A DNA stretch of 64,000 nucleotides from NCBI GenBank assembly GCA_045656565.1, contig JAZORH010000013.1:65968-129967 (forward strand), given 5' to 3'. Shown here piece by piece: positions 2,758 through 60,612 of this stretch (position 1 is its first letter; each line of letters starts with the position of its first letter). This DNA is from Candidatus Onthomorpha sp. (GTDB taxonomy: Bacteria; Bacteroidota; Bacteroidia; Bacteroidales; P3). The notes under the pieces were generated by a model. That model was not told the origin of the DNA, searched no databases, and saw nothing but the letters and a program-made list of their open reading frames with translations. Both the position numbers and the translations under genes were made by a program.

Positions 2758-2852
2758 AAATCTTCGTTTTACTATTAACAAAACGAAGATTCAGAAAATT
2801 AAAACAAAGAAAGAAAAAATTAAAACAAAGTTTCATCTGAGTAAAACAAAGA
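2758..2852 (+). repeat. Intergenic cluster of 21-nt tandem units (family TTTYAGAAAATTAAAACRAAG); the first unit pairs with an inverted copy to form a hairpin
   Basis: The hairpin is aaatcttcgtttt-actattaac-aaaacgaagatt. It is followed by units whose ...AAAACAAAG ends fall at 2788, 2809, 2830 and 2851, an exact 21-nt phase. Confidence 0.8.
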
Positions 2853-2891
2853 GTTCTTATGCCGAAAATCTATTCTTAAAAAGATAATAAA

Positions 2892-2924
2892 GAAAAAGCC
2901 CAAACGCACAAGGCATTCGGGCTT
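2892..2924 (-). terminator. Rho-independent terminator after the C1 peptidase gene
   Basis: The minus strand reads agcccgaa-tgccttgtgcg-tttgggct followed by TTTTT. It lies 25 nt downstream of the stop at 2950. Confidence 0.7.
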
Positions 2925-2949
2925 TTGTCTTTTCAAACCTTAGGGTTTA

Positions 2950-4158
2950 TTACTTGATGTTCAATTTTTGTTTCATTTCAGCAGACAAAGCGTTCTTGTT
3001 GATTTGGATATCGATTGTTTTGTAACGAACAAATGCTTCTGAAGCATAGAAATATCCATTGTATTTTCCGCTATCTGCACCCCATGAATTTTTAACTTTG
3101 TAGAATTTGTTTCCGTTTGCGTCTTTAAACAATCCTACTATGTGCATTCCGTGGTCATCAGTTGTAGAGAAGTTATCGAATCCTTCTTGTCTCATTTCTT
3201 GTGTGATAACTTTTTCTTTTGCTGTTCCATCGAAAGCATAAGCAGCTGCGGCTTTTTCTGCTGCAGTTAGTTTTTCCCATTTTTCTTTTTCAGTTCCGCT
3301 TAAGTCTTTCTTATCAGCATCAGGCACGATTGCAACTCCGTTTTTCCAAGAGAATCCTTTTTCGCTTACGTCAGAACCCCATCCGATTGTATAACCATCT
3401 TCCAAAGCTTTATCCATGATAGCTATCATTTCGTCAAGTGTTACATTGTATATGTGTGCGTGTAACCAGTTGTCTGGAACTTCCAACATAAAGGTTTCAT
3501 AGAATGGGTGGTGTGTGAAAGAACCTATTTCTATGTAATCATTATAATCCAATCCTAAGCTAGCTGCATAAGACATTGGAGTATATTCAACACCTTTGTA
3601 AGTGAATTTCTCAGGCATTGGTCCAAAGTATGAATCCAACAAAGCATTCAAAGCATCTTTCCAATTTGGAGTTAATACTTTTCCATTAGCAAGTGCCTTT
3701 ACGAAACCTTCCAATGCTGGAGTCAAACCTGTGAAGTCAGGAAGTTCTGTTCCATAGTTCAATCCTCTATATACTTCTTCTGGTACGATACCATATTTCT
3801 TTATAATGTAAGGAATGTCTTGGAAAGCACCACCTTCAGCGAATGTAGCAGCGCCGTGGAATCTTATGTAACGTTCTGCTTTTTCCATATAAGCGTTACG
3901 TACTATCCACATTTCCGATAAGTCCACTTCTCCTTTACCTGCTTTGATTACTTCTGATTCTATGAAACTCAATGCAGAGTATGACCAACATGTACCTGAA
4001 CGATTTTGATCCTTAACACTTGTTGCAGGGTTGTCTTTAACTGCTGTAAAGACATAACCTTTTGGCTCTTCTTTTGCCTTTTTGTTTTTCTTTTGAGCAA
4101 AAGTTGCTGTTGATGACAACAACAACACTGCTGCTAATACGTAAATTACTCTTTTCAT
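2950..4158 (-). CDS. Papain-fold C1-family cysteine peptidase (aminopeptidase C / bleomycin-hydrolase-like) with signal peptide
   Basis: The active-site context is QNRSGTCWSYSALSF, with distal DHGMHIVG and NSWG motifs. The N-terminus MKRVIYVLAAVLLLSSTATFAQ is a signal peptide. Confidence 0.8.
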   Translation of the reverse strand: MKRVIYVLAAVLLLSSTATFAQKKNKKAKEEPKGYVFTAVKDNPATSVKDQNRSGTCWSYSALSFIESEVIKAGKGEVDLSEMWIVRNAYMEKAERYIRFHGAATFAEGGAFQDIPYIIKKYGIVPEEVYRGLNYGTELPDFTGLTPALEGFVKALANGKVLTPNWKDALNALLDSYFGPMPEKFTYKGVEYTPMSYAASLGLDYNDYIEIGSFTHHPFYETFMLEVPDNWLHAHIYNVTLDEMIAIMDKALEDGYTIGWGSDVSEKGFSWKNGVAIVPDADKKDLSGTEKEKWEKLTAAEKAAAAYAFDGTAKEKVITQEMRQEGFDNFSTTDDHGMHIVGLFKDANGNKFYKVKNSWGADSGKYNGYFYASEAFVRYKTIDIQINKNALSAEMKQKLNIK

Positions 4159-5326: not shown

Positions 5327-5373
5327 ATTCTTTTGTATTTTTATTTTCGTTTCTTACTATATGGTAATATTAC

Positions 5374-6429
5374 TTAATTTTTGAAATAATAACTTGCTGG
5401 TTTCAATAAATGGTCCAAAACAAAGAATTGAAAAATTAAAGTATCCTTGTTTCCACTATGCAAGCCATAGCAACGATTCACATCAAAAATATTATAAAAG
5501 TCGCTTTCATTTTCAGCTATGCTCGAAGGATCATACAACTTCGAATATGTTTTCAACTGATTTTGCTCTCCCTTTGTATTTTTCACTGTAAAGACAAATG
5601 CAGGTGCTTGAGAGAACACTGTATCTTTTTCTATTTGAGGAATATTCTTTGCAACGCTTTCGTAATTCAACTCAAACAAACTAGACAACAAAGCAACTAC
5701 TTTAACAGTATCAAATTTTGCCAATTTAGTTTTTGATTCTAGCATATTAAAATCAAATCCGCTTCCATTCTTTACAAGTTCGAAACTTTCAGAAGGCTGA
5801 TTTGGAATCTCAACTTTAAGATATGCAATATCATCTCTATTATATTTGAACACAGCATGCGATCTCCAAATATCTTCTACTGCTGAAAAGCGAGTTGATA
5901 AGTAACCTTTGAAACTTGGAATATAAACAACACAAGGCTCTTCTTCTCCTTTAAGCATCATATATGTACCCATGTTGTCTTGTGTTTCGGATCCAACAAA
6001 ATAAGTCTTATTTACCTTCTCTCTTTCGAATAATTTGATTCCCCAAAAGTCAATTAAATACTTTTTTTGCCAAACTTGAACTTTCTTACCGCTAGCAGCC
6101 AATTGCTTAACGATGTTATTTCTTGCAGCTTTTGCGATAGGCTCACGCACTCTCATATCTTTGAAAGTTGAAAGTAAGCTTTCTATCATTTTAATATTGG
6201 CATCACGTCCATTGACAACCCAACTACTATCTGTTTTCTTTTCCAATGACAAAGTTCGTTCGTCCTTATCATCTATTATAATCTTGGTGATAGAGTTTAT
6301 ATCTTTTATATTGTAATTCTGTTCTATCGTAGTATCATCTTGCATTAACAAAACAACTGCAACAACCACAAGCATCACCACTGCCAAAGCAGATATTACA
6401 TAATTTCTTTGTTTTCTATTCAGTTTCAT
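5374..6429 (-). CDS. DUF4340-like membrane-anchored protein, the usual neighbour of GldG
   Basis: It has a single N-terminal TM segment (VISALAVVMLVVVAVVLLM) and sits directly downstream of gldF-gldG with a 12-nt gap. The family assignment is by recollection and context. Confidence 0.55.
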   Translation of the reverse strand: MKLNRKQRNYVISALAVVMLVVVAVVLLMQDDTTIEQNYNIKDINSITKIIIDDKDERTLSLEKKTDSSWVVNGRDANIKMIESLLSTFKDMRVREPIAKAARNNIVKQLAASGKKVQVWQKKYLIDFWGIKLFEREKVNKTYFVGSETQDNMGTYMMLKGEEEPCVVYIPSFKGYLSTRFSAVEDIWRSHAVFKYNRDDIAYLKVEIPNQPSESFELVKNGSGFDFNMLESKTKLAKFDTVKVVALLSSLFELNYESVAKNIPQIEKDTVFSQAPAFVFTVKNTKGEQNQLKTYSKLYDPSSIAENESDFYNIFDVNRCYGLHSGNKDTLIFQFFVLDHLLKPASYYFKN

Positions 6430-6441
6430 TTCTTATATATA

Positions 6442-8247
6442 TTAGTGTTTTACAGTAGTATTCTTTTTGCAATAGATTCTCTTTCTCATCAAAATCAAAA
6501 TAACTCCCGACAATATCACAATCACAACCGGTAAAGCAACGTTTATGACTTGCCAAAATGTACGTTCACGTTCTATTTTTGCAGTATCCAGTTTTCTCAT
6601 TATTACTTCTCTCGAACGTAATGGGATTAAATCTTCATCACCGCAAAGATAATTAACACAATTTACCAAGAACTCTTTATTACCATACATTTGTCTTGTG
6701 TACTTATCATATCCTAATGGTAGCAATTGTCCATTTATAAAATCATTTCTACAAATATCTCCATCGGCAACAACTATCATTGAAGTAGAATCTGAATAAT
6801 CTTTGTAGGCTATTTGAGTACTTTCCTCCATAGTTGCAGTCAGTCTGTTTTTGAAAGCAGAAACGAATTCACCTTCTAAAAGCATTGCAACAGGTTTTGC
6901 TCCTGAATTAAACAAATTCGCACTTTGTTTTTGCTTCAACATTGTAAGAGATACATTAACCGGAGCATTCATAATTCTTGTTCCAGCAGAAGAAGATAAC
7001 AACACTGTTTTCGTTGCTTGGGAAGCTGTTGTATCAATTGTAGAAACAAATTCCATTTTCACAGGACTAATTTTATCAGATACAACATGATTAGAATTTG
7101 GATGGATTTCTGGAAAGAAATTCCAAGGATAATAAGTCATCTGTGGTACATTATCCTGATATTGTCCTGTTACAATAGGAACTTTGGCGCATTGCAAATC
7201 CATCACCAAATTAGTGTTGACTTTAGCTCCGTAACGGAATAAAATATCATCGACACCCGTAAAATTAGATATTGCTAAAGTTGATGGTTGTGTTTGTAAA
7301 CTATCCATTGACACATTCAATGCGTCCAACAACCACAACACTCTTCCGCCATGCATAATAAATTGGTCAATTATGTATAAGTCTTTATACGAAAAAACAG
7401 ACGTAGGCTTTGCAACAATCATACATTTGTACTTATTAGCAAAACCTACTGCATTCGCGGTTGTAGTATCGTAAACTCTATCTGTCAAAGAGTTCAATTT
7501 CTCATTTATTGTTATTGAATCAACATCATAATACTCACTAAGAGAAGACACAAAGTCGTAAATATTTTCAACAGGTAGCTCTCCATGACCATAAAGGAAA
7601 ACAACCTTATCTTTTTTTGCAGCTACAATTGATCGAATTGAAGAATAAAGATTGTATTCTAAGTTTTCTATAGAACCTGCTATGATTCCATCACCTGCAA
7701 TTCCCTTTTTAGAACTCAACAACGGAACAATCGAAGTTCTTCCCTTGTGTACAATCTCTATATATGGGAAAATATATTGTTGAACTTGAGTATTAGATTT
7801 AGTAGTTCTTGTATTTATTGGGCTGAATCCTTTTTCAAATAATCTACCATAAAATTCATCTCTTTCCTTGTGGTTTTCAAAATTATTCGGATCAATAAAT
7901 TCATACTCTATATTTGAATTATAAGCTCTGAATTGGTCTAACATTTCCTTAGTTTCATTCTTCAAAGTCTTATAACTTGCAGGCATATCTCCATTAAGGT
8001 AACAGCGTATAAAGACCACTTCATCTATCTGTTTCAACATTGACTTTGTTGAATCGGAAAGACTATACCGTTTCTCTTCTGTTAAATCCAAACGTGCAAA
8101 GAAATAATACCCTACAACATTTACAAATATTATAGTTATCAAACCTAAAACCAACTGTAAAATATGAGAACGTTTCACATCAGCTTTCACACTTGTTGGC
8201 TTGAAAACTTTCTTAAAAAAACTGATTATTCGCTTTTTCATTTCCAT
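6442..8247 (-). CDS. gldG: Gliding-associated ABC-transporter auxiliary component GldG-like
   Basis: 601 aa with N- and C-terminal TM anchors flanking a large extracytoplasmic domain. It follows the ABC-2 permease with a 10-nt gap, which is the classic gldF-gldG arrangement. Confidence 0.7.
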   Translation of the reverse strand: MEMKKRIISFFKKVFKPTSVKADVKRSHILQLVLGLITIIFVNVVGYYFFARLDLTEEKRYSLSDSTKSMLKQIDEVVFIRCYLNGDMPASYKTLKNETKEMLDQFRAYNSNIEYEFIDPNNFENHKERDEFYGRLFEKGFSPINTRTTKSNTQVQQYIFPYIEIVHKGRTSIVPLLSSKKGIAGDGIIAGSIENLEYNLYSSIRSIVAAKKDKVVFLYGHGELPVENIYDFVSSLSEYYDVDSITINEKLNSLTDRVYDTTTANAVGFANKYKCMIVAKPTSVFSYKDLYIIDQFIMHGGRVLWLLDALNVSMDSLQTQPSTLAISNFTGVDDILFRYGAKVNTNLVMDLQCAKVPIVTGQYQDNVPQMTYYPWNFFPEIHPNSNHVVSDKISPVKMEFVSTIDTTASQATKTVLLSSSAGTRIMNAPVNVSLTMLKQKQSANLFNSGAKPVAMLLEGEFVSAFKNRLTATMEESTQIAYKDYSDSTSMIVVADGDICRNDFINGQLLPLGYDKYTRQMYGNKEFLVNCVNYLCGDEDLIPLRSREVIMRKLDTAKIERERTFWQVINVALPVVIVILSGVILILMRKRIYCKKNTTVKH

Positions 8248-9165: not shown

Positions 9166-9189
9166 GTATAAATTTATCAAAATATTAAC

Positions 9190-9627
9190 TTAATCGTCAT
9201 AGCGTTTGAAGTTTCCATTTTTATCAAATACAATATCAATACCGTTATTCAACTCAACATTGTATTCTCTTCTATCCTTATCTATATCAACCACAAAAGC
9301 ATTTTGGTGTTTTTCTGCAACGAAAGAGTTTATCGCAGCAGGTATAATAGCCACAGGAACACCATCATTCTTTCTTACCTCAACGCTTGTCCAATCTCCA
9401 TCTTTGTCAAAGTCCACCTTAGCACCGTCAGCAAAACGAACCTCATAGTCTTTGTCAAATATATCACAGTCGCAAAATGCCATTGTTATTTCCTTATCTG
9501 AAAAGTGTGTTCGGATAAAAGATTGTGCTTTCGCAGGAAGTTGATTAAAATCCACCACTTTACTGTTTGATGACTCACAACTGAAAAACATAAATACAGC
9601 CATAAGTATTGTCATTATTCTTTTCAT
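9190..9627 (-). CDS. PepSY-like (putative beta-lactamase-inhibitor-like, DUF2874-type) lipoprotein, paralog 1
   Basis: 145 aa with lipobox FFSC. It carries the repeated motif pattern LPAKAQSFI...EV.F..G.KV.FD..G.W and PAAINSFV...VELNNGI...FDKNG. Confidence 0.6.
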   Translation of the reverse strand: MKRIMTILMAVFMFFSCESSNSKVVDFNQLPAKAQSFIRTHFSDKEITMAFCDCDIFDKDYEVRFADGAKVDFDKDGDWTSVEVRKNDGVPVAIIPAAINSFVAEKHQNAFVVDIDKDRREYNVELNNGIDIVFDKNGNFKRYDD

Positions 9628-9807
9628 TGTTTTTTTTATTTTTTAGTTTAACCATCTGATTGTATTAACGTAAAGAATTACCAATTGTTTTATATACGTT
9701 TGAAAAATATTGCATATTTATAATTTATACACCTATTAAAGTTCTTAAATCAAAACTTCCGGACAATCAGTTTTTGGGAATGTTTTACCAATTTTTGAAT
9801 CCCTTTG

Positions 9808-9883
9808 AGCGAAACGAAGTTTTAGAGGTAACGAAACGGCGTTTTAGAAAATCAGATTCAAGTTTTAGAAAATTAAAACAAAG
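9808..9883 (+). repeat. Intergenic 21/22-nt tandem unit cluster (same family)
   Basis: Units end at 9819, 9841, 9862 and 9883. The last is the exact 21-mer TTTTAGAAAATTAAAACAAAG, which is also present reverse-complemented at 18307-18327. Confidence 0.8.
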
Positions 9884-9931: not shown

Positions 9932-9959
9932 ATCATGTAGATTTATCAAATATATTCAC

Positions 9960-10397
9960 TTAATCATCATATCGTTTGAAGTCTCCGTCTCTTTCGAAGT
10001 AAATTTCAATGCCATTATTCAACTCAACTTTATACTCTAAGAAATCTTTATCAATATCCACCACATAGTTATTTGGGTGTCTTCCTGTAACGAAAGAGTT
10101 TATCGCAGCAGGCATTGCAGATGCAGGAACACGTTGATTCTTTCCCATATCAATATTTATCCACTCTCCACTTCTGTTAAAATCTACTTTCGTACCATCA
10201 GCAAAACTCACTTCATAATCTCTATCTATGAAATCATCATCACTAAACACCAATGTAATTTCTTTATCTGCAAAATGGGTTTTAATAAACGATTGAGCCT
10301 TTGCAGGAAGCTGATGGAAATCTAAAACTCTGCTGTTTGAGGATTCACAACTAAAAAATACAAACGCAGTCATTAGTACTATAAACACTCTTTTCAT
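9960..10397 (-). CDS. PepSY-like (DUF2874-type) lipoprotein, paralog 2
   Basis: 145 aa and colinear with 9190..9627, roughly two-thirds identical by eye. It has the same FFSCESSNS lipobox and the same C-terminal KRYDD. Confidence 0.6.
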   Translation of the reverse strand: MKRVFIVLMTAFVFFSCESSNSRVLDFHQLPAKAQSFIKTHFADKEITLVFSDDDFIDRDYEVSFADGTKVDFNRSGEWINIDMGKNQRVPASAMPAAINSFVTGRHPNNYVVDIDKDFLEYKVELNNGIEIYFERDGDFKRYDD

Positions 10398-15707: not shown

Positions 15708-17468
<1,761 letters not shown>

Positions 17469-18283: not shown

Positions 18284-18360
18284 GTCTTTGTTTTAATTTT
18301 ATATTTCTTTGTTTTAATTTTCTAAAACTTGATTTTATTTTTCCAATTCTTCGTTTTATT
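18284..18360 (-). repeat. thiE-thiG spacer made of four 21-nt units (same family)
   Basis: Units start at 18284, 18305, about 18325 and 18347. The last overlaps the thiE stop codon at 18356-18358. Confidence 0.8.
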
Positions 18361-18988
18361 TTGCCGAATCTTTTATTCGCTGAAACAGCTCTTTGATTGT
18401 GTTTTGAGGATTTGAAGCTTCCAAAATCAGTGATGAAATAGCAATTCCATAAACGCCTGTTTCCATTATCTGATTCACGTCTTCGAGTCTTATTCCTCCT
18501 ATTGCGTAAATCGGCAATTCAATATCCATCTGCCTACATTGTTGCATTATATCTTTGTAACCCTGTATCCCTAATATCGGACTTAGCTTTTCTTTTGTCT
18601 GAGTAAAACGAAAGGGGCCTAAACCTACATAATCGGCAGATAATTCTTTTGCTTGTTGTATTTGTTCAAAATTATTGCAAGTCAATCCGACTATTTGATT
18701 ATCCTTAATCTTTGTTTTGACAGATTTAATGTTCTCGTCGTTTTGTCCGATATGCACTCCGTCAAAACCAAGAGAGCTTGCCAAATCCGCATTGTCGTTC
18801 ATAATTAAACAAGCTTTGTATTTACTGCACTCTTCCAATAATTCGTAGGCTGTTTGTTTGATTTGCTCAATCGGACTATGCTTCATCCTAAGTTGTATCA
18901 GCCTTATACCATTGTCTAATGCCAATTTAGCACTCTCAATGTAGGAATACTTCTCATTTGTGTGCGTTATAAAATATATTCTATCCAT
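18356..18988 (-). CDS. thiE: Thiamine-phosphate synthase
   Basis: MDRIYFITH...IQLRMK...NDN.DLA...DGVHIGQND...GLGPF.FT.TK...AIGGI. The start is taken at 18988, 2 nt after the stop of the upstream paralog. Confidence 0.85.
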
Positions 18989-20574: not shown

Positions 20575-20640
20575 TAGATTTTTTTTGTTACTAGAAAAAA
20601 AACTCTGATTTCAACACGAACAATTCCAAAATAAAAAATA

Positions 20641-45265: not shown

Positions 45266-45345
45266 AAAAGAAGCTCCTAAAACGAGAAAAGAACAAACTA
45301 AAACGAAGTTTAATTTAGACAAAACAAAGTTTTGATAAAACCGTT
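45266..45345 (+). repeat. Intergenic 21/22-nt tandem unit cluster (same family)
   Basis: The ...AAAACGAG, ...AAAACGAAG and ...AAAACAAAG ends fall at 45286, 45308 and 45329. Confidence 0.75.
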
Positions 45346-46688: not shown

Positions 46689-47201
46689 TTAATACTGAAG
46701 ATCGCAATCGAAAGACTTTATCAAAGTATCGATAGCATTTGTCTTCTTTTTGAAATATGCATACGTATCTTCAGGTGTATAGATTTTAACTGCTTTTTCT
46801 TTTTGTTTGCATCTAACTTTCAAAAAGTAGTTATCCATACCCGTCTTCTCTTTTACAAACGATTTAATCTTTTGTTTATTATTTTCTAATTCAAATTCGG
46901 AGATACTGTTATTGACTTCCAAAACGATGAATTCATCATTCAACTTAATACATTCTGCAGTCTTTATCGAGAAAGAAAGATTCGGATTCTCCGTTTCGCA
47001 TTCCTCGCTTAATTGTTTTAGAGCATCGCAAAACGCTTTGAAATCTTCAACTTTTTTTTCTTCAACAAGTTCGACATGTTTCTTCTCTAAAACCTTAACC
47101 TCTTCAACAGAGTCATTTATGGCAAAAGGAGATACGATTTTAATATTTGTATTGATCTTTCTAGTAGCCGGTGTCGCTACATTCAAATCGTCATTTTTTT
47201 T
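46689..47201 (-). CDS. dnaX: dnaX downstream segment: tau-specific C-terminal region in the -1 frame relative to 47183..48424
   Basis: This frame is open from the AAA codon at 47201-47199, immediately after an in-frame TAA at 47204-47202, down to the stop at 46689. There is no credible independent promoter or start. See the slippery-site feature. Confidence 0.65.
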   Translation of the reverse strand, partial: KKNDDLNVATPATRKINTNIKIVSPFAINDSVEEVKVLEKKHVELVEEKKVEDFKAFCDALKQLSEECETENPNLSFSIKTAECIKLNDEFIVLEVNNSISEFELENNKQKIKSFVKEKTGMDNYFLKVRCKQKEKAVKIYTPEDTYAYFKKKTNAIDTLIKSFDCDLQY

Positions 47202-48424
47202 TTAGTGTCGTCTTCTTTTAGAATCGAGTTTTGAGTAATTGGAGATGTTGCTTGCATTTGTTGAAGCGGACCTTGATTCAACTGGCGTGGTTGTTGCGTT
47301 TGCTGTGGAGGGTGCTGATTTGGTTGGAGTTTATTCATAATATACGCCATCTTCATCAAGCCTAGCTCTATGCACAAACGCTTATTGTAACTCTCTCTAT
47401 ACTCCAACGCACAAGTGTTTGCAAATTCCAAGGCACGCAAGATAAACAATTGAGGAGCGCTCTGAGCTTGCAAGTTATACCTTTGAGCAACCGTCTCACT
47501 AACATCTAACAACGATATAGAGGTAGGGTTTTTGCATACAAGTAAATTACGAAAATGAGAAGCCAATCCACTTATAAAATGACTACCTTCAAAACCTTTC
47601 TTAAGTACTTGGTCGAATAGCAGAAGGGAATTAGGAACATCGCTCGCCAAAAGCAAATCTGTCAATTTGAAATAGTAGTCATAATCCAATATATTCAAAT
47701 TGTCAATTATGTTTTTGTACGAAAGATTAGCATTTGTGAAAGAAACCAATTGGTCAAACATACTTAAAGCATCACGCAATCCCCCATCTGCCTTTTGAGC
47801 TATGATTCTAAGAGCCTCTTTCTCATATGCGACACTCTCAGTCTTTGCAATATACTCCAAATGGTTAGCAATATCTTCGTTATTTATGCGATGGAAGTCA
47901 AAAATCTGACACCTAGACAAGATTGTCGGCATAATCTTATGCTTTTCTGTCGTTGCAAGAATGAATTTTGCGTATGCAGGCGGCTCTTCCAAAGTTTTCA
48001 AAAACGCATTGAAAGCCGCAGTGGAAAGCATATGCACTTCGTCTATGATATAAACCTTATAGCGTCCGTTTTGAGGAGGAATTTTCACTTGCTCTATAAG
48101 AGAGCGTATATCCTCTACTGAATTGTTCGATGCAGCGTCTAGTTCCACTATATTGAAAGACGCATTTGAATCGAAGCTGCGACAACTCTCACATTCGTTA
48201 CAAGCTTCCGTTTGTTCGTTTATGGAAGTGCAGTTGATAGTCTTTGCCAATATTCTCGCACAAGTAGTCTTCCCAACACCTCTTGGACCGCAAAACAAAA
48301 ATGCTTGTGCAAGCTGATTGCTCCTTAAGGCGTTTTGCAAAGTCGAGGTGATGTGTCCTTGCCCTACAACCGAACGAAAATCACTCGGACGATACTTTCT
48401 GGCTGATACAACATAGTTTTCCAT
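47183..48424 (-). CDS. dnaX: DNA polymerase III subunit gamma/tau, zero-frame (gamma-like) product
   Basis: The AAA+ clamp-loader motifs are GPRGVGKTT (Walker A), IIDEVHMLS (Walker B), a zinc module CNECESC, and SRC (ILSRCQ). It is 413 aa and ends 9 nt after the A10 run. Confidence 0.9.
   Translation of the reverse strand: MENYVVSARKYRPSDFRSVVGQGHITSTLQNALRSNQLAQAFLFCGPRGVGKTTCARILAKTINCTSINEQTEACNECESCRSFDSNASFNIVELDAASNNSVEDIRSLIEQVKIPPQNGRYKVYIIDEVHMLSTAAFNAFLKTLEEPPAYAKFILATTEKHKIMPTILSRCQIFDFHRINNEDIANHLEYIAKTESVAYEKEALRIIAQKADGGLRDALSMFDQLVSFTNANLSYKNIIDNLNILDYDYYFKLTDLLLASDVPNSLLLFDQVLKKGFEGSHFISGLASHFRNLLVCKNPTSISLLDVSETVAQRYNLQAQSAPQLFILRALEFANTCALEYRESYNKRLCIELGLMKMAYIMNKLQPNQHPPQQTQQPRQLNQGPLQQMQATSPITQNSILKEDDTKKKMTI
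47194..47203 (-). other. dnaX: A10 homopolymer: candidate transcriptional-slippage / -1 ribosomal frameshift site joining the two dnaX reading frames
   Basis: The plus strand shows T10 at 47194-47203. The minus strand reads ACT AAA AAA AAA ATG ACG ATT TGA. Confidence 0.6.
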
Positions 48425-48490: not shown

Positions 48491-48628
48491 CAACCCACAA
48501 AGTTCAGACGAATATTTTATCCATTCTGTTCAACGAAACAAAGATCTAGAAAATTAAAACGAAGATTCATTTTCTTAAAATCAAAAAAGAAAAAATTAAA
48601 ACAAAGTTTCAGTGATAGCGAATTCAAG
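48491..48628 (+). repeat. Intergenic cluster of about six tandem units (same family)
   Basis: Units end at 48502, 48543, 48564, 48589, 48606 and 48628. They include TCTAGAAAATTAAAACGAAG and AAAAAATTAAAACAAAG. Confidence 0.75.
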
Positions 48629-50428: not shown

Positions 50429-51877
50429 TTATCTTGAAAGAGTTTTAGAACTTCTTTTGCTTGAACTGCTTGGAGCTTTTGTTTGTTTTGCAGAGCCGGT
50501 TTTTGTTTTTGAAGAACTATTTTTTGTTTTTGAAGAACTGTTTACTGACTTTGAAGACTTAGAAGACTTGTTATTTTTACTCTTATTGTTATTATACGAT
50601 TTTTCTTTCTTTGTCTCCTTATTTTTACCTACGTTTGTATTTTTTGCAGGCTTGCTTTCAGGTTTTGAAACTTCCTTTTCAGTCTTGCTACCATTATTAA
50701 TAGCTTTTTTGTCATCGTTTATCGCTCCTTTTAACTCCTTGCTATCGTTGTTGTTATTCTTCTTTTCAGGATTTGAGAAATTGCCTTTAGAAGCTTCTTT
50801 TTCAAAATTTGTTACATTTGAATTACTGTTTTTAGCTGGTTTAGGTAATGGTTTGTTTGAATCTTTATTTGAATCCAATTCTTTGTTTATTGTAGTTGTA
50901 GGCTTGGTTTCGCGATTAAATTCTTTGTCTTTTGAATTTTCCTTGTTGTTACCCTTGTTTAGTTCTTTGGCTCCTGAAGTGATTTTTGTAGGTTTCTCAA
51001 TTAAGATACTCTTATTTGTATTCTTAGTTTCCTTTGCAAACTCTTCAGACTTGGCTTTGTTTCTTTCCATTATAGCTTTGTTGGTTGATAAAGCCTTGTC
51101 GTTGAATGTTACATTAGGATTCTCTTTTTTGAAATCTGTTTCCAAGTTTGTTTCGTTTGGAATATCTTTCAACATTGATACTTCCTCGTCTGAGAAGTAC
51201 TCTGCCAAGTTTAAGTTCTTGTAGTTTCCTGATTCAACACTTTTTGATGGCACAAAACCTGGACGAGTTACTGTTCCGCCATTGTTGTTGGTGGTTATAG
51301 TACCTGTGTTTCCGCGTCCGATTACTGCACCTCCCTTTGTATGATGACCATGGTTGTATTCGTGGTAGCGACCGTTTGGTCTGTAGTGAGGATCGTGTCT
51401 ATAATCGTGATGATGTCTGTGACAGTAAGCCGCATAGTAACCATCATAATAGCCATTTCTGTATCCGTGAGCATAAGCGAAAGAAGGATTATATCCATAC
51501 AAATGACTCCAACCGTAATATGTGTAATAGAAAAACTCCCAGTAGTCATCGCAATTGTCTAATACGTATAGAGCATACTCTCTCGCCCTTAGAGAATAGT
51601 TGATTGCACTATTGTAAGCTCGGTTACGATACTTCTTTTGAGCGTATTCATTATAGTAAACAGCTTTTGAAAGATATGTATTAGTCCAATAGTTGTAAAA
51701 ATGAACCACATCATAGGCTTGGTCGATAACATAAGCTGTTTTATTGATGATGTTTCTTGCAGTTGATTTCTTTGAAGAAGGAGATCTGAAGCAATCATGT
51801 GCAAAAGATTCTTCTACTACAGCTAAGCTTGTGAATAAAACGGCTAAGCTTAATAAGATTTTTCTAAAACGTTTCAT
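50429..51877 (-). CDS. Secreted Tyr/His-rich protein with a long Lys/Asn/Ser-rich disordered tail
   Basis: It has a signal peptide. Residues about 40-180 are extremely rich in Y, H and N (YYDGYYAAYCHRHHHDYRHDPHYRPNGRYHEYNHGHH). The C-terminal 280 aa are low-complexity K, N, S and T. It sits 8 nt upstream of the DUF4139-like gene. Confidence 0.55.
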   Translation of the reverse strand: MKRFRKILLSLAVLFTSLAVVEESFAHDCFRSPSSKKSTARNIINKTAYVIDQAYDVVHFYNYWTNTYLSKAVYYNEYAQKKYRNRAYNSAINYSLRAREYALYVLDNCDDYWEFFYYTYYGWSHLYGYNPSFAYAHGYRNGYYDGYYAAYCHRHHHDYRHDPHYRPNGRYHEYNHGHHTKGGAVIGRGNTGTITTNNNGGTVTRPGFVPSKSVESGNYKNLNLAEYFSDEEVSMLKDIPNETNLETDFKKENPNVTFNDKALSTNKAIMERNKAKSEEFAKETKNTNKSILIEKPTKITSGAKELNKGNNKENSKDKEFNRETKPTTTINKELDSNKDSNKPLPKPAKNSNSNVTNFEKEASKGNFSNPEKKNNNNDSKELKGAINDDKKAINNGSKTEKEVSKPESKPAKNTNVGKNKETKKEKSYNNNKSKNNKSSKSSKSVNSSSKTKNSSSKTKTGSAKQTKAPSSSSKRSSKTLSR

Positions 51878-54083: not shown

Positions 54084-54161
54084 AAGTTTGAAAAGTTAGA
54101 AATTTCCCACAAAAATACAAAATTTTAACTTTTCAGAAAGAAACAACGAAAAAAAATAAAA

Positions 54162-54251
54162 GAAAAACAACTCTTTGTTTTAATTTTCTGAATTCAAGAA
54201 AGAATATCGCGAAATCAAGAAACAATTTTCTGAAACAAAGAGTTGTTTTTC
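54162..54251. repeat. Long hairpin (19-bp perfect stem, 52-nt loop) built from 21-nt family units; probable terminator of the CAT-like gene
   Basis: gaaaaacaactctttgttt (54162-54180) pairs with aaacaaagagttgtttttc (54233-54251). The loop contains ATTTTCTGAATTCAAG and CAAGAAACAATTTTCTGAA, both also found at 60546-60569. Confidence 0.75.
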
Positions 54252-54300
54252 TAAAACTTGATGTTGTTAATTCAGGATAATGTATTATCGTTTTTTCCCT

Positions 54301-54918: not shown

Positions 54919-54987
54919 AATTGTTTTGTGATTTAAGGTTTCATTTCTGCAAAATTACAAAAAAGAATACTCATACGAAATTTGCTA

Positions 54988-55043
54988 CTCGCAAAACCAA
55001 GTTTCAGAAAATTGAAACAAAGTTTTAGAATTTTAATCAGCCG
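54988..55043 (+). repeat. Intergenic 21-nt tandem unit cluster (same family)
   Basis: Units end at 55001, 55022 and 55043 (TTTCAGAAAATTGAAACAAAG, TTTTAGAATTTTAATCAGCCG). Confidence 0.8.
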
Positions 55044-56228: not shown

Positions 56229-56345
56229 CGTTTTTTTTCAGTATCTCACAAATTTATTTTCACTTTTCTTTGTTTTATTTTCTTCTTTCGCAGATTTACA
56301 ACAACTTAAACAAAGAAAAAGATATTTGTTTTCAAGAAATAAAAA

Positions 56346-57008: not shown

Positions 57009-60000
57009 CTAAGCTTTCATTATTTTAATTCCAAGTTCTACGCCATCGATTACATCAATCATTTGCGTAGGCTCTTGAACCTTTTCTACAAACTTTAATT
57101 CCTTTGTTAGGGTTTCGCTACATATATAATCCATAAAGCGTTCCACTGCAGGGCAAAGCAAGCTGTGTTGCTCTATTTCTACGATTATATTGTCTGTAAC
57201 ATCGAAATCGCTTTCCTTTCTTATGTTTTGAATTCTGTTTACCAACTCACGAGAAATTCCTTCCATACGAAGGTCATCTGTAATCGTTGTATCCAAAGCC
57301 ACAGTCAAAGCATCTTCGTTTGCAACTACCCAACCAGGAATATCTTGTGTGATTATCTCAACATCACTCAAAGCTATCTCGATTTCACTTCCCTCAATAT
57401 TTAAGACATATTTGCCCTCAGACTCCATTTTCAAAATATCGTCTTGAGTAAATGCTGTTATCGCAGCTGCAATTGCCTTCATCTTTGGTCCGAATTTTGG
57501 TCCCAATGTCTTGAAGTTTGCTTTTATGCTCTTAACTAAAACATTGTTCTCTTTAGTTAGGAATTCTATACCCTTAACATTAACTTCTGACAATATCAAA
57601 TCCTTTACCGCTTCGATATGACTTTGTTGTGTCGCATCTTTTGCAGGAATCATTATCTTTGAAAGAGGTTGGCGAACCTTCAAATTGTTTCTCTTTCTCA
57701 ATGAAAGCACAAGTGAACAAATCTTTTGTGCCATTTGCATTCTGCTTTCCAAGTCTTTATCCACCAATTCCTTATTTGCAACAGGGAAATCGCAAGCATG
57801 AACTGTATCAAACTCGAATCTGCCACTCACATTGTTCAAATCATTAAACAGCCTGTCGCAGAAGAACGGAGCAATCGGAGCAGCCAATCTTGCGAGAGTT
57901 TCTAAGCAAGTGTAAAGTGTTTGATATGCCGAAATCTTATCGTCAGTGTATTCACCCTTCCAAAATCTACGTCTGCACAAACGAACATACCAGTTACTCA
58001 AATAGCCATCAACAAAGTCTGCAATTGCTCTTCCGGCTTTTGTAGGCTCATAATCGCTGTAGCTTTTATCGCAATATTCTATCAAAGTGTTCAATTCTGA
58101 CAATATCCAGCGGTCTATTTCCGGTCTTTTTGAGTATTCTATATCTGCTTCCTTGTATGCGAATCCGTCAATGTTTGCATAAAGAGCGAAGAACGAATAA
58201 GTATTGTACAGAGTTCCGAAGAACTTACGACGAACCTCATCTATACCGGCTTGATCGAACTTAAGATTTTCCCAAGGTTGAGTATTGGTAATCATATACC
58301 AACGAGTAGCGTCCGGACCGTAAGTTTGCAAAACCTCAAACGGGTCAACGGCATTACCCAAACGCTTAGACATCTTATTACCTACTTTATCCAATACCAA
58401 GCCATTTGAAACCACGTTCTTGAATGCAATAGTATCGAAACACAAAGCTGCGATTGCATGCAACGTAAAGAACCATCCGCGTGTTTGATCCACACCTTCG
58501 GCAATGAAATCCGCAGGGAAGCAAGCCTTCAACTGCTCATCATTACATTCAAATGGGTAATGAACTTGTGCATACGGCATAGCACCTGAATCAAACCAAA
58601 CATCTATCAAATCCGATTCACGACGCATTTCCTTACCACTTGCACTTACCAATACTACATTGTCGATATACGGACGGTGAAGGTCGAAACTATTGTAATC
58701 TTTATGGTTTTTGTATGGATTTTCTTTCATAAAGCCTGCCGCAATACTCTTCTCGATTTCGTTAGACAACATTTCGACAGAGCTGATGCACATTTCCTCG
58801 CTTCCATCTTCAGTTCTCCAGATTGGAAGTGGAGTTCCCCAATATCTCGAACGGCTTAAATTCCAATCAACAAGGTTTTCCAACCAATTTCCAAAGCGTC
58901 CGCTTCCTGTTGCTTCAGGCTTCCAATTGATTGTTTTATTAAGTGCTATCAATTTATCTTTGATTGCTGTCGTTCTTATGAACCAACTGTCAAGCGGATA
59001 GTAAAGAATAGGTTTGTCTGTTCTCCAACAGTGAGGATAATTGTGGACATGCTTTTCTATTTTGAAAGCCTTGCCCTCTTGTTTCAACAAAACGCTCAAA
59101 TCAACGTCCAAAGTAGGATCTTTTTCCGTCAATTCGGGATCGTAAGCGTTCTTTACAAATCTGCCAGCAAAAGCTCCGTAAGATTCTACATTAACATAAT
59201 CACTCACAAACTTAGCATCAAGGTCTTCTATTCTGAAAAACTTACCTTGTCTATCGACCATAGGTTGTTTCTTTCCCTCTTTGTCTATCATAAACAAAGG
59301 AACGATACCCGCTTGCTTTGCTACACGGTCGTCATCCGCACCAAAAGTTGGAGCAATGTGCACTATACCTGTACCATCTTCGGTTGTAACATAATCACCG
59401 CCTATAACCTTGAACGCATTTCCCATAGGAGCAACAAAATTCATCAATTGCTCATAGTCAAATCCTATCAAGTCGGCACCTTTGCACTCTGCAAGAACCT
59501 CGAACGGTATTTCCTTATCGCCTTTTTTGTATTCTTCGAAAGTCAATCCTGCATTCTTTTCAGGACAATAAGCATTCAAACGAGCCTTTGCCATAACAAC
59601 AACTTCCAAATCTCCTGAATACGGATTGAAAGTCTTGACAAAAACATAGTCTATATTAGGTCCGACAGCCAAAGCAGTGTTTGACGGTAAGGTCCACGGC
59701 GTTGTAGTCCATGCCAAGAAGCAAACATCTTCTGCAATATTAAGTCTGAACTTCTCTTTTATTTCTTGCTGTTGTTTAACTTTGAATTGGACAACGGCAG
59801 TCGTATCTTTCACATCTCTGTAACAGCCCGGCATATTAAGCTCATGCGAACTTAAGCCCGTACCTGCTGCAGGCGAAAACGGCTGAATGGTATATCCCTT
59901 GTACAAATAGCCTTTTTCGTACATCTTTCCAAGCAAATACCAAAGTGTTTCAATGTATTCGTTCTTGAAAGTTATGTAAGGATTGTCCAAATCTACCCAA

Positions 60001-60425
60001 TAACCCATTTGAGTAGTCAATTTATCCCACATATCCTTATATTTCATAACCTCACTTCGGCATTCGGCATTGTATTGGTCGACAGAAATTTTGCCACCTA
60101 TGTCTTCCTTGGTGATACCTAGCTTTTTCTCAACACCCAATTCAACAGGCAATCCGTGAGTATCCCAACCTGCTTTTCTAGCTACATAAAAACCTTTTTG
60201 GGATTTATATCTGCAAAAAATATCTTTAATTGTTCTTGCCATAACATGGTGAATGCCCGGTTGTCCGTTAGCTGAAGGTGGTCCTTCGAAGAAGATGTAT
60301 GGCTTTGAACCTTCTCTTTGTTTCAACGTTTGTCTGAAAGTGTCTTCTTTTTGCCACTTTTCGAGAACTTCATTGCTTATTTGAGTCAAATTAAGCTGCT
60401 TATACTCTCTGTATTTGCTTTCCAT
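57009..60425 (-). CDS. ileS: Isoleucine--tRNA ligase (long, type-2 form)
   Basis: 1138 aa. It has a class I HIGH-type motif (PSANGQPGIHHV), KMSKRLGN (KMSKS) and a CP1 editing domain. Confidence 0.95.
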   Translation of the reverse strand: MESKYREYKQLNLTQISNEVLEKWQKEDTFRQTLKQREGSKPYIFFEGPPSANGQPGIHHVMARTIKDIFCRYKSQKGFYVARKAGWDTHGLPVELGVEKKLGITKEDIGGKISVDQYNAECRSEVMKYKDMWDKLTTQMGYWVDLDNPYITFKNEYIETLWYLLGKMYEKGYLYKGYTIQPFSPAAGTGLSSHELNMPGCYRDVKDTTAVVQFKVKQQQEIKEKFRLNIAEDVCFLAWTTTPWTLPSNTALAVGPNIDYVFVKTFNPYSGDLEVVVMAKARLNAYCPEKNAGLTFEEYKKGDKEIPFEVLAECKGADLIGFDYEQLMNFVAPMGNAFKVIGGDYVTTEDGTGIVHIAPTFGADDDRVAKQAGIVPLFMIDKEGKKQPMVDRQGKFFRIEDLDAKFVSDYVNVESYGAFAGRFVKNAYDPELTEKDPTLDVDLSVLLKQEGKAFKIEKHVHNYPHCWRTDKPILYYPLDSWFIRTTAIKDKLIALNKTINWKPEATGSGRFGNWLENLVDWNLSRSRYWGTPLPIWRTEDGSEEMCISSVEMLSNEIEKSIAAGFMKENPYKNHKDYNSFDLHRPYIDNVVLVSASGKEMRRESDLIDVWFDSGAMPYAQVHYPFECNDEQLKACFPADFIAEGVDQTRGWFFTLHAIAALCFDTIAFKNVVSNGLVLDKVGNKMSKRLGNAVDPFEVLQTYGPDATRWYMITNTQPWENLKFDQAGIDEVRRKFFGTLYNTYSFFALYANIDGFAYKEADIEYSKRPEIDRWILSELNTLIEYCDKSYSDYEPTKAGRAIADFVDGYLSNWYVRLCRRRFWKGEYTDDKISAYQTLYTCLETLARLAAPIAPFFCDRLFNDLNNVSGRFEFDTVHACDFPVANKELVDKDLESRMQMAQKICSLVLSLRKRNNLKVRQPLSKIMIPAKDATQQSHIEAVKDLILSEVNVKGIEFLTKENNVLVKSIKANFKTLGPKFGPKMKAIAAAITAFTQDDILKMESEGKYVLNIEGSEIEIALSDVEIITQDIPGWVVANEDALTVALDTTITDDLRMEGISRELVNRIQNIRKESDFDVTDNIIVEIEQHSLLCPAVERFMDYICSETLTKELKFVEKVQEPTQMIDVIDGVELGIKIMKA

Positions 60426-60509
60426 ATCGTATTGTTATATTTTTTCGCCACTCTATTTTACCAACTTGCAAAAATAGCAAAAAAAAGTCGTTTTTCTATA
60501 TACAAAAGT

Positions 60510-60612
60510 CAGAAAATTGTTTCTTCGTTTCAGTCGAGCGAAACCAAGAAACAATTTTCTGAATTCAAGTTTCGTCAGCACTAAAACGAAGAAAGAAAAA
60601 ATTAAAACGAAG
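60510..60612. repeat. Hairpin plus tandem units of the 21-nt family
   Basis: The 16-bp stem pairs cagaaaattgtttctt (60510-60525) with aagaaacaattttctg (60547-60562). Units follow, ending at 60569, 60591 and 60612. Confidence 0.8.

Follow-up and report, generated by a model that had tools for sequence, protein, structure and literature searches.

What are the head-to-tail units of about 21 nt that recur between the genes of the 64,000-nt stretch of Candidatus Onthomorpha DNA analysed here (the window), and at what level do they act? The original prediction described them as a dispersed intergenic family, and our counts bear this out: the intergenic DNA of the window (8,293 nt) contains 33 RAAACRAAG cores, versus 1.74±1.34 expected from 500 dinucleotide shuffles of the same segments, and 10 phased core pairs, versus none in 500 of 500 shuffles. 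Exact matches to AAAACRAAG numbered 36 across the window (4.8±2.0 in shuffles, maximum 9), and the density of RAAACRAAG was 12-fold higher in intergenic than in coding DNA (4.0 versus 0.34 per kb). The phase was equally strict, with same-strand cores up to 130 nt apart spaced by 21 (12 pairs), 22 (1), 42 (6), 43 (2), 63 (4) or 64 nt (3); no distance in this range fell outside the 21/22, 42/43 and 63/64 series in the window. Tandem Repeats Finder reported period-21 arrays at 2780, 9841, 15701, 18285, 28396 and 54182, and a de novo repeat search, run without motif input, recovered families D2, D4, D6-D10 and D14 together with inverted pairs I1-I6 between loci (up to 83 nt at 72%, 54 nt at 87%). 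Of the 35 intergenic segments measuring 60 nt or more, about 13 had copies, which, summed from the array coordinates, cover about 1.1 kb, or about 13% of the intergenic total. These results confirm a real 21-bp repeat family, far above chance, with the excess over composition-matched shuffled intergenic DNA being measured within the window only. Its members are as follows.

2755-2795, no single strand: inverted pair of units, with cores at 2762-2770 (minus) and 2780-2788 (plus).
2768-2851, plus strand: direct array of four units, every core perfect, between queA (1563-2663) and a peptidase C1 gene.
9799-9883, plus strand: array of four units, two of them degenerate, between two PepSY-like paralogues, with a hairpin terminator on the upstream side and the start of the next gene on the downstream side.
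15710-15793, minus strand: array of four units occupying the entire thiC-thiH intergenic space.
18286-18369, minus strand: array of four units in the thiE-thiG spacer.
21867-21924, no single strand: single and mixed-orientation copies, with a core at 21904-21912 on the minus strand.
28403-28508, minus strand: array of four to five units between a DUF362/ferredoxin gene and a nitroreductase gene, also found as repeat family D4.
34670-34734, plus strand: two to three units overlapping the fucosidase stop codon, the last running into a hairpin at about 34727-34775.
45267-45329, plus strand: array of three units between a methylmalonyl-CoA mutase gene and a Na/H exchanger gene.
48523-48628, plus strand: array of four to five units, with the upstream gene's terminator hairpin on one side and the dnaX promoter on the other.
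54160-54255, no single strand: composite of inverted units forming a long hairpin (z = -5.59).
54981-55043, plus strand: array of two to three units between the terminator of a thioredoxin gene and the start of a CAT-like gene.
56262-56340, no single strand: weak mixed-orientation copies, of which the unit at 56268-56288 (minus) is good and the others degenerate.
60503-60566, no single strand: inverted pair of units whose minus strand folds into a hairpin (stem about 23 bp) with Us after it.
60571-60612, plus strand: two units in direct orientation, both cores perfect, located upstream of ileS (57009-60425).

Each unit combines a conserved core, T-RAAACRAAG-WWW-TA, with a variable linker of about 6 bp; a core of 9-10 bp joined to a lineage-specific spacer of 12 bp describes it better. 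Many units also have a partial dyad, TAAAAC-N3-GTTTTA, within the conserved stretch. The unit positions of the original prediction, given as series of terminal G residues, are present in the sequence, but the units listed at 9841, 9862, 34734, 45286, 48628, 55043 and 60569 are degenerate (two mismatches or a 22-nt step) and the copies at 56262-56340 are weak. The sequence identities it had pointed out between loci also exist: the 21-mer at 9863-9883 is repeated in reverse complement at 18307-18327, within the thiE-thiG array, and 2810-2830 and 48586-48606 carry an identical unit, AAAGAAAAAATTAAAACRAAG. The array at 60571-60612 contains this unit too. The overlap with stop codons is likewise present, the fucosidase ORF ending ...GAAACGAAGTTTTAG at 34696 inside its units, and the TAA of thiE (18356-18358) consisting of a T plus the AA that opens the first core of the array. 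The stop codon of thiC is built in the same way, and at the other end of the thiC-thiH array a start ATG lies 3 nt beyond the last core.

In loci selected for containing arrays, 130 of 141 arrays (about 92%) were intergenic, and they occupied co-directional, convergent (29) and divergent (17) spacers, that is, all of the gene contexts that had been described; with co-directional flanking genes, orientation was random (13/11 and 15/15), and it showed no bias relative to GC skew (53/50), all of these counts coming from loci chosen for carrying arrays, five of which were afterwards judged false members. Direct arrays are unfolded (z from -0.9 to +0.9, including an unstructured thiC-thiH array at +0.89 and the thiE-thiG array at -0.87). 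Inverted pairs give strong folds (z from -5.6 to -8) with a U-run behind them, in agreement with the terminator-like stems proposed earlier. The pair at 2755-2795, read on the minus (gene) strand, forms a hairpin and then a U-run (dG -14.8 kcal/mol, z = -6.05) and is predicted to be the terminator of the peptidase C1 gene at 2950-4158; the pair at 60503-60566 (dG -29.4 kcal/mol, z = -7.97) is the predicted terminator of the gene at 60653-63580. The intergenic location, random orientation and unfolded direct arrays indicate a family that works as DNA.

A search of 185,579 species genomes for three cores in phase listed at least 117 stretches, 92 of which were assigned to 18 Bacteroidales MAGs; after inspection of the arrays, at least 87 stretches in 15 MAGs were kept among the matches listed. 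The core fills intergenic regions in at least 15 Bacteroidales MAGs besides the genome of the window, with phase conserved, and these hosts come from animal guts, termite guts, anaerobic bioreactors or similar environmental sites. Each lineage has a distinct spacer "dialect" around a core that does not vary among at least 16 genomes from several candidate genera. Matches in other phyla and in viral contigs had neither the T that precedes the core nor the TA that follows it, and were rejected as single perfect tandem repeats, mostly coding-heptad-like. The family is absent from viral contigs, plasmids and Rfam, and 80 Bacteroidota ThiC loci unselected for arrays (about 640 kb) contained none. 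Judged from sequence, it is a trait of a clade of uncultured low-GC Bacteroidales. The original prediction had taken the units for neither a CRISPR array nor a recognised REP/BIME-type family; they are not CRISPR, and no published description was found in the literature searched. This result, the excess over shuffles and the recurrence of core and phase outside the window all went in its favour, each on a sample short of a whole-genome census.

The units are dispersed as multi-unit blocks. In the MAG RGIG4461, a 63-nt block A-B-C occurs in 13 copies at 12 loci with at most 6 mismatches, two copies being perfect, and the units follow an order grammar (A>B 14, B>C 14, C>D 11). In this MAG, adjacent units are no closer to each other than non-adjacent ones. 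Near-identical spacers account for 8-27% of pairs between arrays in RGIG4461, Scybalousia, STF2_138 and Hm464, and the composite of inverted units in the window (54163-54257) is 77% identical to positions 5259-5353 of L066, a non-orthologous site in another genome. The terminal inverted units of RGIG4461 were not evident in the window.

Comparison of related genomes revealed both conservation and decay. At the position orthologous to the 2768-2851 array, a Ca. Onthomorpha MAG (L027) carries an array (5912-5983) in which the seven fixed core positions are unchanged (0/21, counted by hand on the alignment), versus 11 of 24 positions changed in two aligned spacers, a comparison provided by one well-preserved orthologous array. 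Such a pattern is more suggestive of purifying selection or gene conversion acting on the core than of the neutral decay of junk DNA. The other orthologous array is decaying in L027. Upstream of dnaX (47183-48424), which has a conserved Bacteroidetes-type promoter (TTTG-N19-TAACTTTG), intact units lie in the 5' UTR in L065; in the window the 5' UTR units have decayed and a separate array lies upstream of the promoter. Positional conservation across lineages was not significant (16 of 107 ortholog pairs, 15%, versus 11% expected). In two other strains of the window's species, the 9799-9883 array showed only a point difference, and no change in unit number was seen among strains in the arrays compared, so that mobility, if any, is slow.

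Rearrangement differences in two near-identical strain pairs break inside arrays. One array in L067 contains a 1.45-kb single-gene segment flanked by units as direct repeats and is uninterrupted in the 98.5% identical L033, and the sequence of contig L001 (99.6% identical) parts from that of the window precisely at the unit boundary 15751/15752 of the thiC array; both cases come from metagenome assemblies, where chimeric joins can arise at repeats. The loci compared included no clean filled-versus-empty site, and no target-site duplication was demonstrated at the arrays. The 64-kb window contains no transposase, RAYT or recombinase, and no multi-copy protein occurred in the sampled array loci.

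The explanation that we favor, and to which we give an even chance, is a clade-specific interspersed mosaic repeat, copied as blocks of DNA, with the core as a protein recognition site. The 21-bp modules would be maintained and spread at the level of DNA rather than as RNA or as sequence coding for protein; several different modules would be copied or gene-converted together, as blocks, into new intergenic sites, single modules would also be duplicated locally in 21-bp steps, and only copies lying outside genes would last, to decay where they are. What the sequences show directly is the make-up of the units, their statistics and distribution, the dispersal of blocks and the breakpoints; we infer both this copying mechanism and the existence of a core-binding protein. 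The invariant core would most likely be the recognition site of a conserved, putative DNA-binding protein, which could be the propagating enzyme, a host protein, or both, as for REP/BIME. The putative placement of a protein on one face of the helix, suggested by the original prediction, is compatible with the data. New relative to that prediction are the division of the unit into core and lineage-specific spacer, the clade-wide family, the dispersed multi-unit blocks and the coincidence with breakpoints.

A possible but distinctly less probable explanation is that a host DNA-binding protein, such as a global regulator, an insulator or a nucleoid-associated protein, uses the arrays as a phased binding platform. 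The arrays would be maintained for this binding and dispersed only secondarily, and each 21-bp module would place one 9-10-bp site on the same helix face for co-operative protomers. Such a role would be consistent with the strict phase (21 bp, rarely 22), the constancy of the core while spacers drift, the partial dyad, and the lack of any link between orientation and genes, which a feature read as DNA should show; the core and spacer pattern in L027 would fit a host function at least as well. Other operators share the 21-bp period, including ArgR ARG boxes, AraC half-sites and OmpR sites. The 9-bp core and 12-bp spacer also have the exact geometry reported for LytTR-domain regulators (AgrA, ComE, AlgR, SilA), whose operators are imperfect 9-bp direct repeats, 12 bp apart, with a 21-bp period (PMC2766830). 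However, LytTR operators are pairs upstream of a few promoters, whereas the arrays here reach 7-9 units and occupy a third of all intergenic regions; the LytTR consensus agrees only in part (at about 6 of 9 positions with the reverse complement of the core, by our own comparison), no LytTR protein is linked to the arrays, and the 64-kb window has neither a LytTR gene nor another candidate. Furthermore, near-identical spacers recur at distant loci although no protein should need them, fixed-order blocks are dispersed, arrays decay at orthologous sites with no positional conservation across lineages, and convergent spacers and operon interiors hold arrays as readily as promoter-near DNA. The number of sites, extrapolated from the window, also seems too large for an ordinary regulator.

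We consider it unlikely that the units are RNA-level elements, such as terminators, 3'-UTR stabilisers or A-rich translation-initiation leaders, the last resting on the limited use of Shine-Dalgarno pairing by Bacteroidota. The strong hairpins with U-runs downstream of genes would agree with such a role, as would the A-rich, unstructured nature of sense-orientation arrays and the location of several arrays in the stretch from a stop codon to a terminator or immediately ahead of a start (thiH, thiG, dnaX in L065). Orientation relative to co-directional genes is random, however, so that, in half of the copies, transcripts would carry the U-rich complement instead; moreover, direct arrays lack structure, some lie between a terminator and the next promoter in DNA that is probably untranscribed, and there is no Rfam match.

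Very improbable is a role resembling DNA uptake sequences, in which a short core would be over-represented throughout the genome through the preference of a competence receptor, with lineage "dialects". The core density of about 1 per kb, the presence of both orientations, the inverted pairs acting as terminators and the conserved core with lineage-specific flanks recall the DUS of Neisseria and the USS of Pasteurellaceae. To our knowledge, however, uptake sequences neither form strictly phased tandem arrays nor occur in fixed-order multi-unit blocks, and the 12-fold intergenic enrichment also argues against this role. Finally, despite a genome G+C content of 36% and an A/T-rich unit, an origin by chance in AT-rich, low-complexity intergenic sequence, or through an artefact of assembly, is refuted by dinucleotide-preserving shuffles, which give 1.7 cores and no phased pair, and by the identical core and phase in independent assemblies from many studies and hosts.

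Among known systems, the family most resembles REP/BIME, BOX or BrickBuilt repeats. Like REP/BIME, it has short units of 20-40 bp, numerous in each genome, exclusively intergenic, clustered in mosaics of direct and inverted orientation, species- or clade-specific, with inverted copies acting as terminators or stabilisers and with repeats serving as recombination substrates. Unlike REP/BIME, the 21-bp unit is generally non-palindromic, with unfolded direct arrays, no conserved GTAG or CGTC tag and no RAYT gene seen; its strict head-to-tail phase (9-bp core, 12-bp spacer) is not a REP feature, and its core is conserved across several genera. BOX of Streptococcus pneumoniae and MIRU of Mycobacterium tuberculosis are likewise modular interspersed repeats, intergenic, with modules in a defined order and one module (boxB; MIRU) reiterated in tandem. 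Their units measure 40-100 bp, BOX folds into stable RNA structures, and MIRUs follow the direction of transcription and contain small overlapping ORFs, whereas the 21-bp arrays are random in orientation and, when direct, unstructured. Within the Bacteroidales, the BrickBuilt MITE/minisatellite of Porphyromonas gingivalis also has tandem direct repeats, of about 22 nt and without unique spacers, at many loci that are always intergenic, with conserved and non-conserved repeat positions, frequent stop codons and, in one strain, an extra gene beside one element (PMC4596501). BrickBuilt differs in having only 19 copies, with strain-variable repeat numbers, limited to P. gingivalis and P. gulae, versus a suggested hundreds of arrays per genome (extrapolated from the window) and a core common to at least 16 genomes of several candidate genera; the units here are 21 nt, lie in both orientations and have no leader or tail, and BrickBuilt TIRs are not enriched in the window (5 matches versus 5.6 expected).

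As a mosaic repeat copied as DNA, the family would also have side effects on the genomes that carry it, as seen or predicted in these assemblies. Inverted module pairs would make intrinsic-terminator hairpins, and the T-RAA opening of the core would supply stop codons to neighboring genes. The arrays may in addition act as patches of homology, at which strains would come to differ by insertions, deletions or rearrangements.

Phased arrays of the 21-bp unit were recovered from the window independently by Tandem Repeats Finder and by a de novo repeat search, and both the former and the distances between cores give a period of 21. The window is 36% G+C with negative GC skew throughout, and AAAACRAAG is present in 36 copies versus 4.8±2.0 in dinucleotide shuffles of the window. 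When genes were delimited with a basic ORF rule and shuffling was restricted to the 8,293 intergenic nt (500 dinucleotide shuffles), RAAACRAAG was found 33 times versus 1.74±1.34, and 10 cores had a partner 20-22 nt downstream, versus 0 in the 500 shuffles. Core density in the window was 4.0 per kb in intergenic versus 0.34 per kb in coding DNA, and same-strand core-to-core distances of up to 130 nt were 21/22, 42/43 or 63/64 without exception. These statistics exclude a chance origin. Copies occupy about 13 of the window's 35 intergenic segments of at least 60 nt, roughly a third, among ordinary chromosomal genes (dnaN, dnaX, ileS, PFOR, methylmalonyl-CoA mutase, the thiS-E-G-C-H-F operon, a fucosidase and others); in RGIG4461, another array-bearing Bacteroidales MAG, the share of occupied intergenic regions is far above that of the window. 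The unit coordinates of the original prediction were accurate, although some of its units are degenerate, and the identical 21-mers and stop-codon overlaps it described were confirmed on re-checking the sequence.

Alignment of 471 array positions from the window and related genomes revealed that T, RAAACRAAG, WWW and TA are conserved across lineages (T 0.79; A at +14 0.82) and about six positions are free, a pattern that defines the unit as a 9-10-bp core plus a 12-bp spacer. Spacers starting with TTTTA create the dyad TAAAAC-RAA-GTTTTA, which keeps a reverse-complemented array in the same 21-bp register and thereby accounts for the mixed-orientation mosaics. The A-tracts within the unit are 4-6 bp apart rather than about 10.5 bp, and judging by this spacing we would not expect marked intrinsic curvature. 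A second version of the core, RAATCAAG, occurs in phase with the main core at 9854-9862, 18328-18336, 48620-48628, 54208-54216 and 60561-60569 of the window, at about 1020-1080 in the Candidatus Onthomorpha MAG L027, and across several lineages (RGIG4461, RGIG9858, Onthomorpha); rather than decaying randomly, these cores may belong to a separate subtype. For both thiC and thiE, the stop codon consists of T plus the AA that opens the first core of the adjoining array, and that of the fucosidase gene is a TAG within a spacer; as read from the sequence, units carry stop codons in two of three frames on each strand.

Direct (head-to-tail) arrays had no predicted RNA or DNA structure relative to shuffles (z = -0.65, +0.89 and -0.87), and self-complementarity was absent from the consensus units of Hm464, STF2 and Onthomorpha. 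Hairpins arose only from inverted pairs of units:

Predicted hairpins in the window
60503-60566, inverted-pair hairpin, z = -8.0
54160-54255, inverted-pair hairpin, z = -5.6
2755-2795, inverted-pair hairpin, z = -6.1

Because these strong predicted hairpins are followed by U-runs on the gene strand, the inverted pairs look like intrinsic terminators. Known RNA families were rejected for lack of any meaningful match of Rfam covariance models to the arrays: no model overlapped them at gathering score within the window, or with E ≤ 1 in six loci rich in arrays, and the sole overlap at E ≤ 0.5 was a meaningless miRNA match on the hairpin at 60504-60567.

Among 141 arrays from the window and related genomes, 130 were intergenic, with 29 in spacers between convergent genes and 17 between divergent genes. 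Orientation relative to co-directional neighbor genes was random (13/11 and 15/15), which sets the family apart from MIRU-type elements, whose units are oriented with transcription and contain small ORFs overlapping the flanking genes. Nor was orientation biased with respect to GC skew (53/50), ruling out a replichore-polar signal of the Chi or KOPS kind. A DUS/USS-like role is unlikely. The location and orientation data argue for a feature read on double-stranded DNA, or for no feature at all, and against a transcript-level role of the direct arrays; RNA-level roles are likely a by-product only, in the form of terminator hairpins from inverted pairs. Array-flanked genes were shared across lineages in 16 of 107 ortholog pairs (15% versus 11% expected; not significant), and a gene-specific regulon was rejected. 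The Bacteroidetes -33/-7 promoter pattern is TTTG-N19-21-TAnnTTTG; TTTG is present in the reverse unit, but the 21-bp spacing and TA-N4-TTTG both misfit this pattern. Units were rejected as promoters; a genuine conserved promoter adjoins an array at dnaX, outside the array itself.

The ThiC and PepSY-like proteins of the window have identical copies on metagenome contigs and in MAG GCA_017632095.1, from the window's species. Among named genomes, Candidatus Onthomorpha MAGs are closest to the window by BLASTN, with 78-84% nucleotide identity within genes; NCBI lists this genus under Bacteroidales incertae sedis. A scan for three phased cores in one genome per species (185,579 species) returned at least 117 stretches; among the matches listed, 92 were assigned to 18 Bacteroidales MAGs, and after inspection 87 from 15 MAGs were kept. 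Among the matches listed, the MAGs kept were RGIG4461 (JAFUGA01; 30 loci), Ca. Scybalousia scybalohippi, three Onthomorpha species, STF2_138, Hm464_bin38 (JAISIA01), RGIG9858, UBA4893, UBA5371, RGIG7394, RGIG9896, UW_MP_BACTE7_1, SO_2016_CLC_T1 and SO_2017_CLC_2. The matches listed from other phyla were single perfect tandem repeats, mostly coding-heptad-like, without the flanking T and TA. A phage or plasmid iteron origin was rejected since 44 of 44 viral-contig matches were likewise unrelated single perfect tandem repeats, mostly coding-like, without T and TA; a 105-nt RGIG4461 block had no match in PLSDB plasmids or INPHARED phages, with the low-complexity filter as a caveat. The best match in a metagenome scan with ThiC reached 74% amino-acid identity, and the loci so obtained serve as an array-free control: no arrays were present in 80 Bacteroidota ThiC loci not selected for arrays (about 640 kb, ≤74% amino-acid identity). 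The core is identical throughout the array-bearing lineages, and each lineage has its own spacer dialect:

Spacer dialects by lineage
RGIG4461, TTnTAGAAAAnT
Scybalousia, AGTTAG..AA.T
STF2_138, AAAGAATTTgCT
Hm464, AAATAATTTACT
One Onthomorpha species and RGIG9858, AAAAATTCCGAA

A literature search found no description of the 21-bp family, which is real, abundant, clade-wide and apparently undescribed, and whose general type is familiar.

The number of units did not change between strains of the window's species, which rules out hypervariable repeat number (VNTR). Two arrays lie at orthologous positions in the window and L027, with equal unit numbers; at the first, 0 of 21 fixed core positions and 11 of 24 spacer positions differed (hand count on the alignment), and at the second, the L027 cores are decaying towards the AATCAAG variant. 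Upstream of dnaX, the window shares a conserved Bacteroidetes-type promoter, TTTG-N19-TAACTTTG, with L065, a locus from another genome; the 5' UTR contains intact sense units in L065 and decayed remnants only in the window, where another array lies upstream of the promoter in opposite orientation.

Two comparisons place larger changes at arrays. L067 (from RGIG9858) and L033 (from an Onthomorpha MAG) are 98.5% identical, and L067 has an extra 1.45-kb segment (5341-6788) that sits within the array downstream of gyrA and is flanked on each side by family units; its single gene (400 aa, minus strand) precedes a putative terminator made from an inverted pair of family units. The corresponding place in L033 (about 3588) is an uninterrupted five-unit array. 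This was the one indel found; family units flank it, not a short duplication, and no target-site duplication was seen. L001, a contig encoding an identical ThiC protein, shares 99.6% nucleotide identity with the window through thiC and then leaves it (L001 1903-2132; window 15708-15751) exactly after the second unit of the thiC array, at 15751/15752, where a different unit follows; tpiA and prmA lie beyond the breakpoint in place of thiH and thiF. Either the strain is rearranged at this junction or the assembly is chimeric at the repeat. Chimeric joins are possible at both the L067 and L001 junctions because both are metagenome assemblies; the contig name 'k141' implies a final k-mer of 141 nt, far longer than the repeat shared at the junction.

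The arrays of RGIG4461 reach 7-9 units of about five discrete types in a recurrent order (A followed by B 14 times, B by C 14 times, C by D 11 times), and a 63-nt A-B-C block is present in 13 copies in 12 loci with at most 6 mismatches. Inverted E-type units, (C)CCCACGAAACTTTG ... CAAAGTTTCGTGGG(G), delimit many of these arrays; they are themselves family units in opposite orientation, and no such boundaries are evident in the window. Near-identical spacers in different arrays made up 8-27% of pairs (RGIG4461, Scybalousia, STF2_138, Hm464). Adjacent units were no more alike than distant ones in RGIG4461, and were more alike in the Onthomorpha group and RGIG9858. These similarity patterns between and within arrays indicate that block dispersal (or gene conversion) and local 21-bp duplication both occur. 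The composite at 54163-54257 of the window is 77% identical to a non-orthologous site in L066, a locus from another genome.

A REP/BIME unit is an imperfect palindrome forming a stem-loop, whereas the direct arrays described here fold no better than shuffles. REP/BIME families are also associated with a RAYT (Y1 transposase) gene in the genome; Pfam found no RAYT, transposase or recombinase among the window's genes, and three ORFs of the right size for RAYT/IS200 (145 aa) beside arrays proved to be two PepSY-like proteins and a thioredoxin. In REPs, one end of the palindrome carries a conserved tetranucleotide, GTAG or CGTC (PMC3733652); here, GTAG was confined to a single RGIG4461 unit type (TTCTACGAAATT), in its reverse complement. 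Among published elements the closest is BrickBuilt of P. gingivalis, the other tandem-repeat intergenic element of Bacteroidales, in which a 23-nt tandem repeat has a leader and a tail ending in IS5-like TIRs (GAGACCTTTGCA) (PMC4596501). In contrast, the period here is 21, the BrickBuilt TIR at ≤2 mismatches had 5 matches in the window versus 5.6 expected, none adjoining an array, and no conserved non-repetitive flanks like the BrickBuilt leader and tail were seen around arrays. MITEs have terminal inverted repeats, a target-site duplication and a related autonomous insertion sequence (IS); no transposase was found in the sampled loci, including the window's genes searched with Pfam. CRISPR arrays, which occupy one locus or a few, mostly beside cas genes, alternate 24-48-nt repeats with unique spacers about as long; they were rejected on the 9-bp core, the semi-conserved 12-bp spacers common to several loci, and the presence of about 13 loci in 64 kb; Pfam found no cas genes in the window. 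The 21-bp family lacks features that define REP (palindromic unit, GTAG/CGTC tag), BrickBuilt (23-nt unit, leader and tail, IS5-like TIR), CRISPR and MIRU elements, and behaves most like BIME and BOX mosaics. Random orientation, intergenic restriction, dialects, dispersed blocks, decay in place and breakpoints together amount to the behavior of interspersed mosaic repeats like REP/BIME, BOX or BrickBuilt.

Other repeats and elements accompany the family in the window. Seven tandem copies of the palindromic motif TGATAATGGTATTATCA(C), in a 7-3-7 arrangement with 22-bp period, lie at 36801-36954 in the long spacer that separates a WD40 gene from an HSDR_N-like one. The array has no relation to the 21-bp family and looks like an operator or iteron array, and its motif resembles Fur/PerR-type boxes (TGATAAT-N-ATTATCA). 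Just upstream, at 36680-36762, about four copies of the 8-nt repeat GACAACAA and two of its inverted counterpart GTCTCGTT form a long imperfect hairpin. The WD40 gene contains a 126-bp tandem repeat (35555-36574, minus strand; 6.9 copies, 87% matches) encoding beta-propeller blades (Pfam WD40 E = 7.5e-107) that are unusually alike at the DNA level, and has orthologues in Onthomorpha (L051, L075) and RGIG4461 (L106). A HepT/MNT toxin-antitoxin pair (34793-35429) lies between inverted copies of a hairpin of about 50 nt (34720-34769 and 35487-35536; AAAACGCTCGTAAGTC...GACTTACGAGCGTTTT), and other MAGs (L034, L115) carry copies of this hairpin at approximately 85% identity. The module, probably a mobile cassette, has different neighbor genes in the window, in L066 and in L045, and each time a 21-bp array adjoins it. 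Upstream of the thiamine operon at its thiD/thiS end, a TPP riboswitch match (20637-20729, minus strand; E = 0.058) falls below the gathering score, with 30.3 bits versus 54.3, and probably represents a true THI element that has diverged. Two tandem PepSY-like paralogues (9179-9478 and 9949-10248; 145 aa each, 73% DNA identity) have their own terminators and a 21-bp array between them. A separate 21-nt tandem repeat, TTTTTGTTTTTGAAGAACTAT (50500-50557, 2.8 copies), inside a 482-aa ORF (50429-51877, no Pfam domain), is of the coding heptad type and does not belong to the family.

That the core is invariant implies that a conserved DNA-binding protein recognizes it, whether a propagating enzyme or a host factor. 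The main alternative to a mosaic repeat family is that the arrays serve the binding of a putative host protein, and although we regard this as improbable, it would be consistent with the conservation of cores over spacers at one orthologous array and with the strict two-turn phase. The LytTR consensus, as Nikolskaya and Galperin reportedly gave it in 2002, is [TA][AC][CA]GTTN[AG][TG], and the reverse complement of the core, TTYGTTTYA, matches about 6 of 9 positions in our own comparison with this consensus. LytTR-type operators are imperfect 9-bp direct repeats 12 bp apart (PMC2766830), and the 9-bp core (10 with the preceding T) and period of 21 reproduce this 9+12 arrangement, a purely geometric likeness that is likewise consistent with host binding. 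It is conceivable, although unlikely, that the arrays are the cis-element of an undescribed chromosome-level system, in which a conserved protein would recognize T-RAAACRAAG and polymerize along one helix face on the 21-bp lattice in a LytTR-like 9+12 manner, forming hundreds of intergenic nucleoprotein patches. Such patches could insulate or organize transcription units and, being mutually homologous, could allow single genes to be gained or lost between arrays, a possibility suggested by the L067/L033 indel and the L001 breakpoint.

Where REP/BIME, BOX, Correia and MIRU elements are known, they affect how transcription terminates, how stable mRNAs are, how genomes rearrange and how strains are typed, and to our knowledge almost nothing comparable has been described from large uncultured gut Bacteroidales lineages. 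The arrays mark places where assemblies and synteny break and should provide natural terminators, and the signature T-RAAACRAAG on a 21-bp lattice allows simple recognition of the clade. The implied core-binding protein could be found by phyletic profiling and tested in vitro despite the uncultured hosts; should it prove to be a host factor and no transposase, the arrays would represent a phased binding lattice of a new kind on the chromosome.
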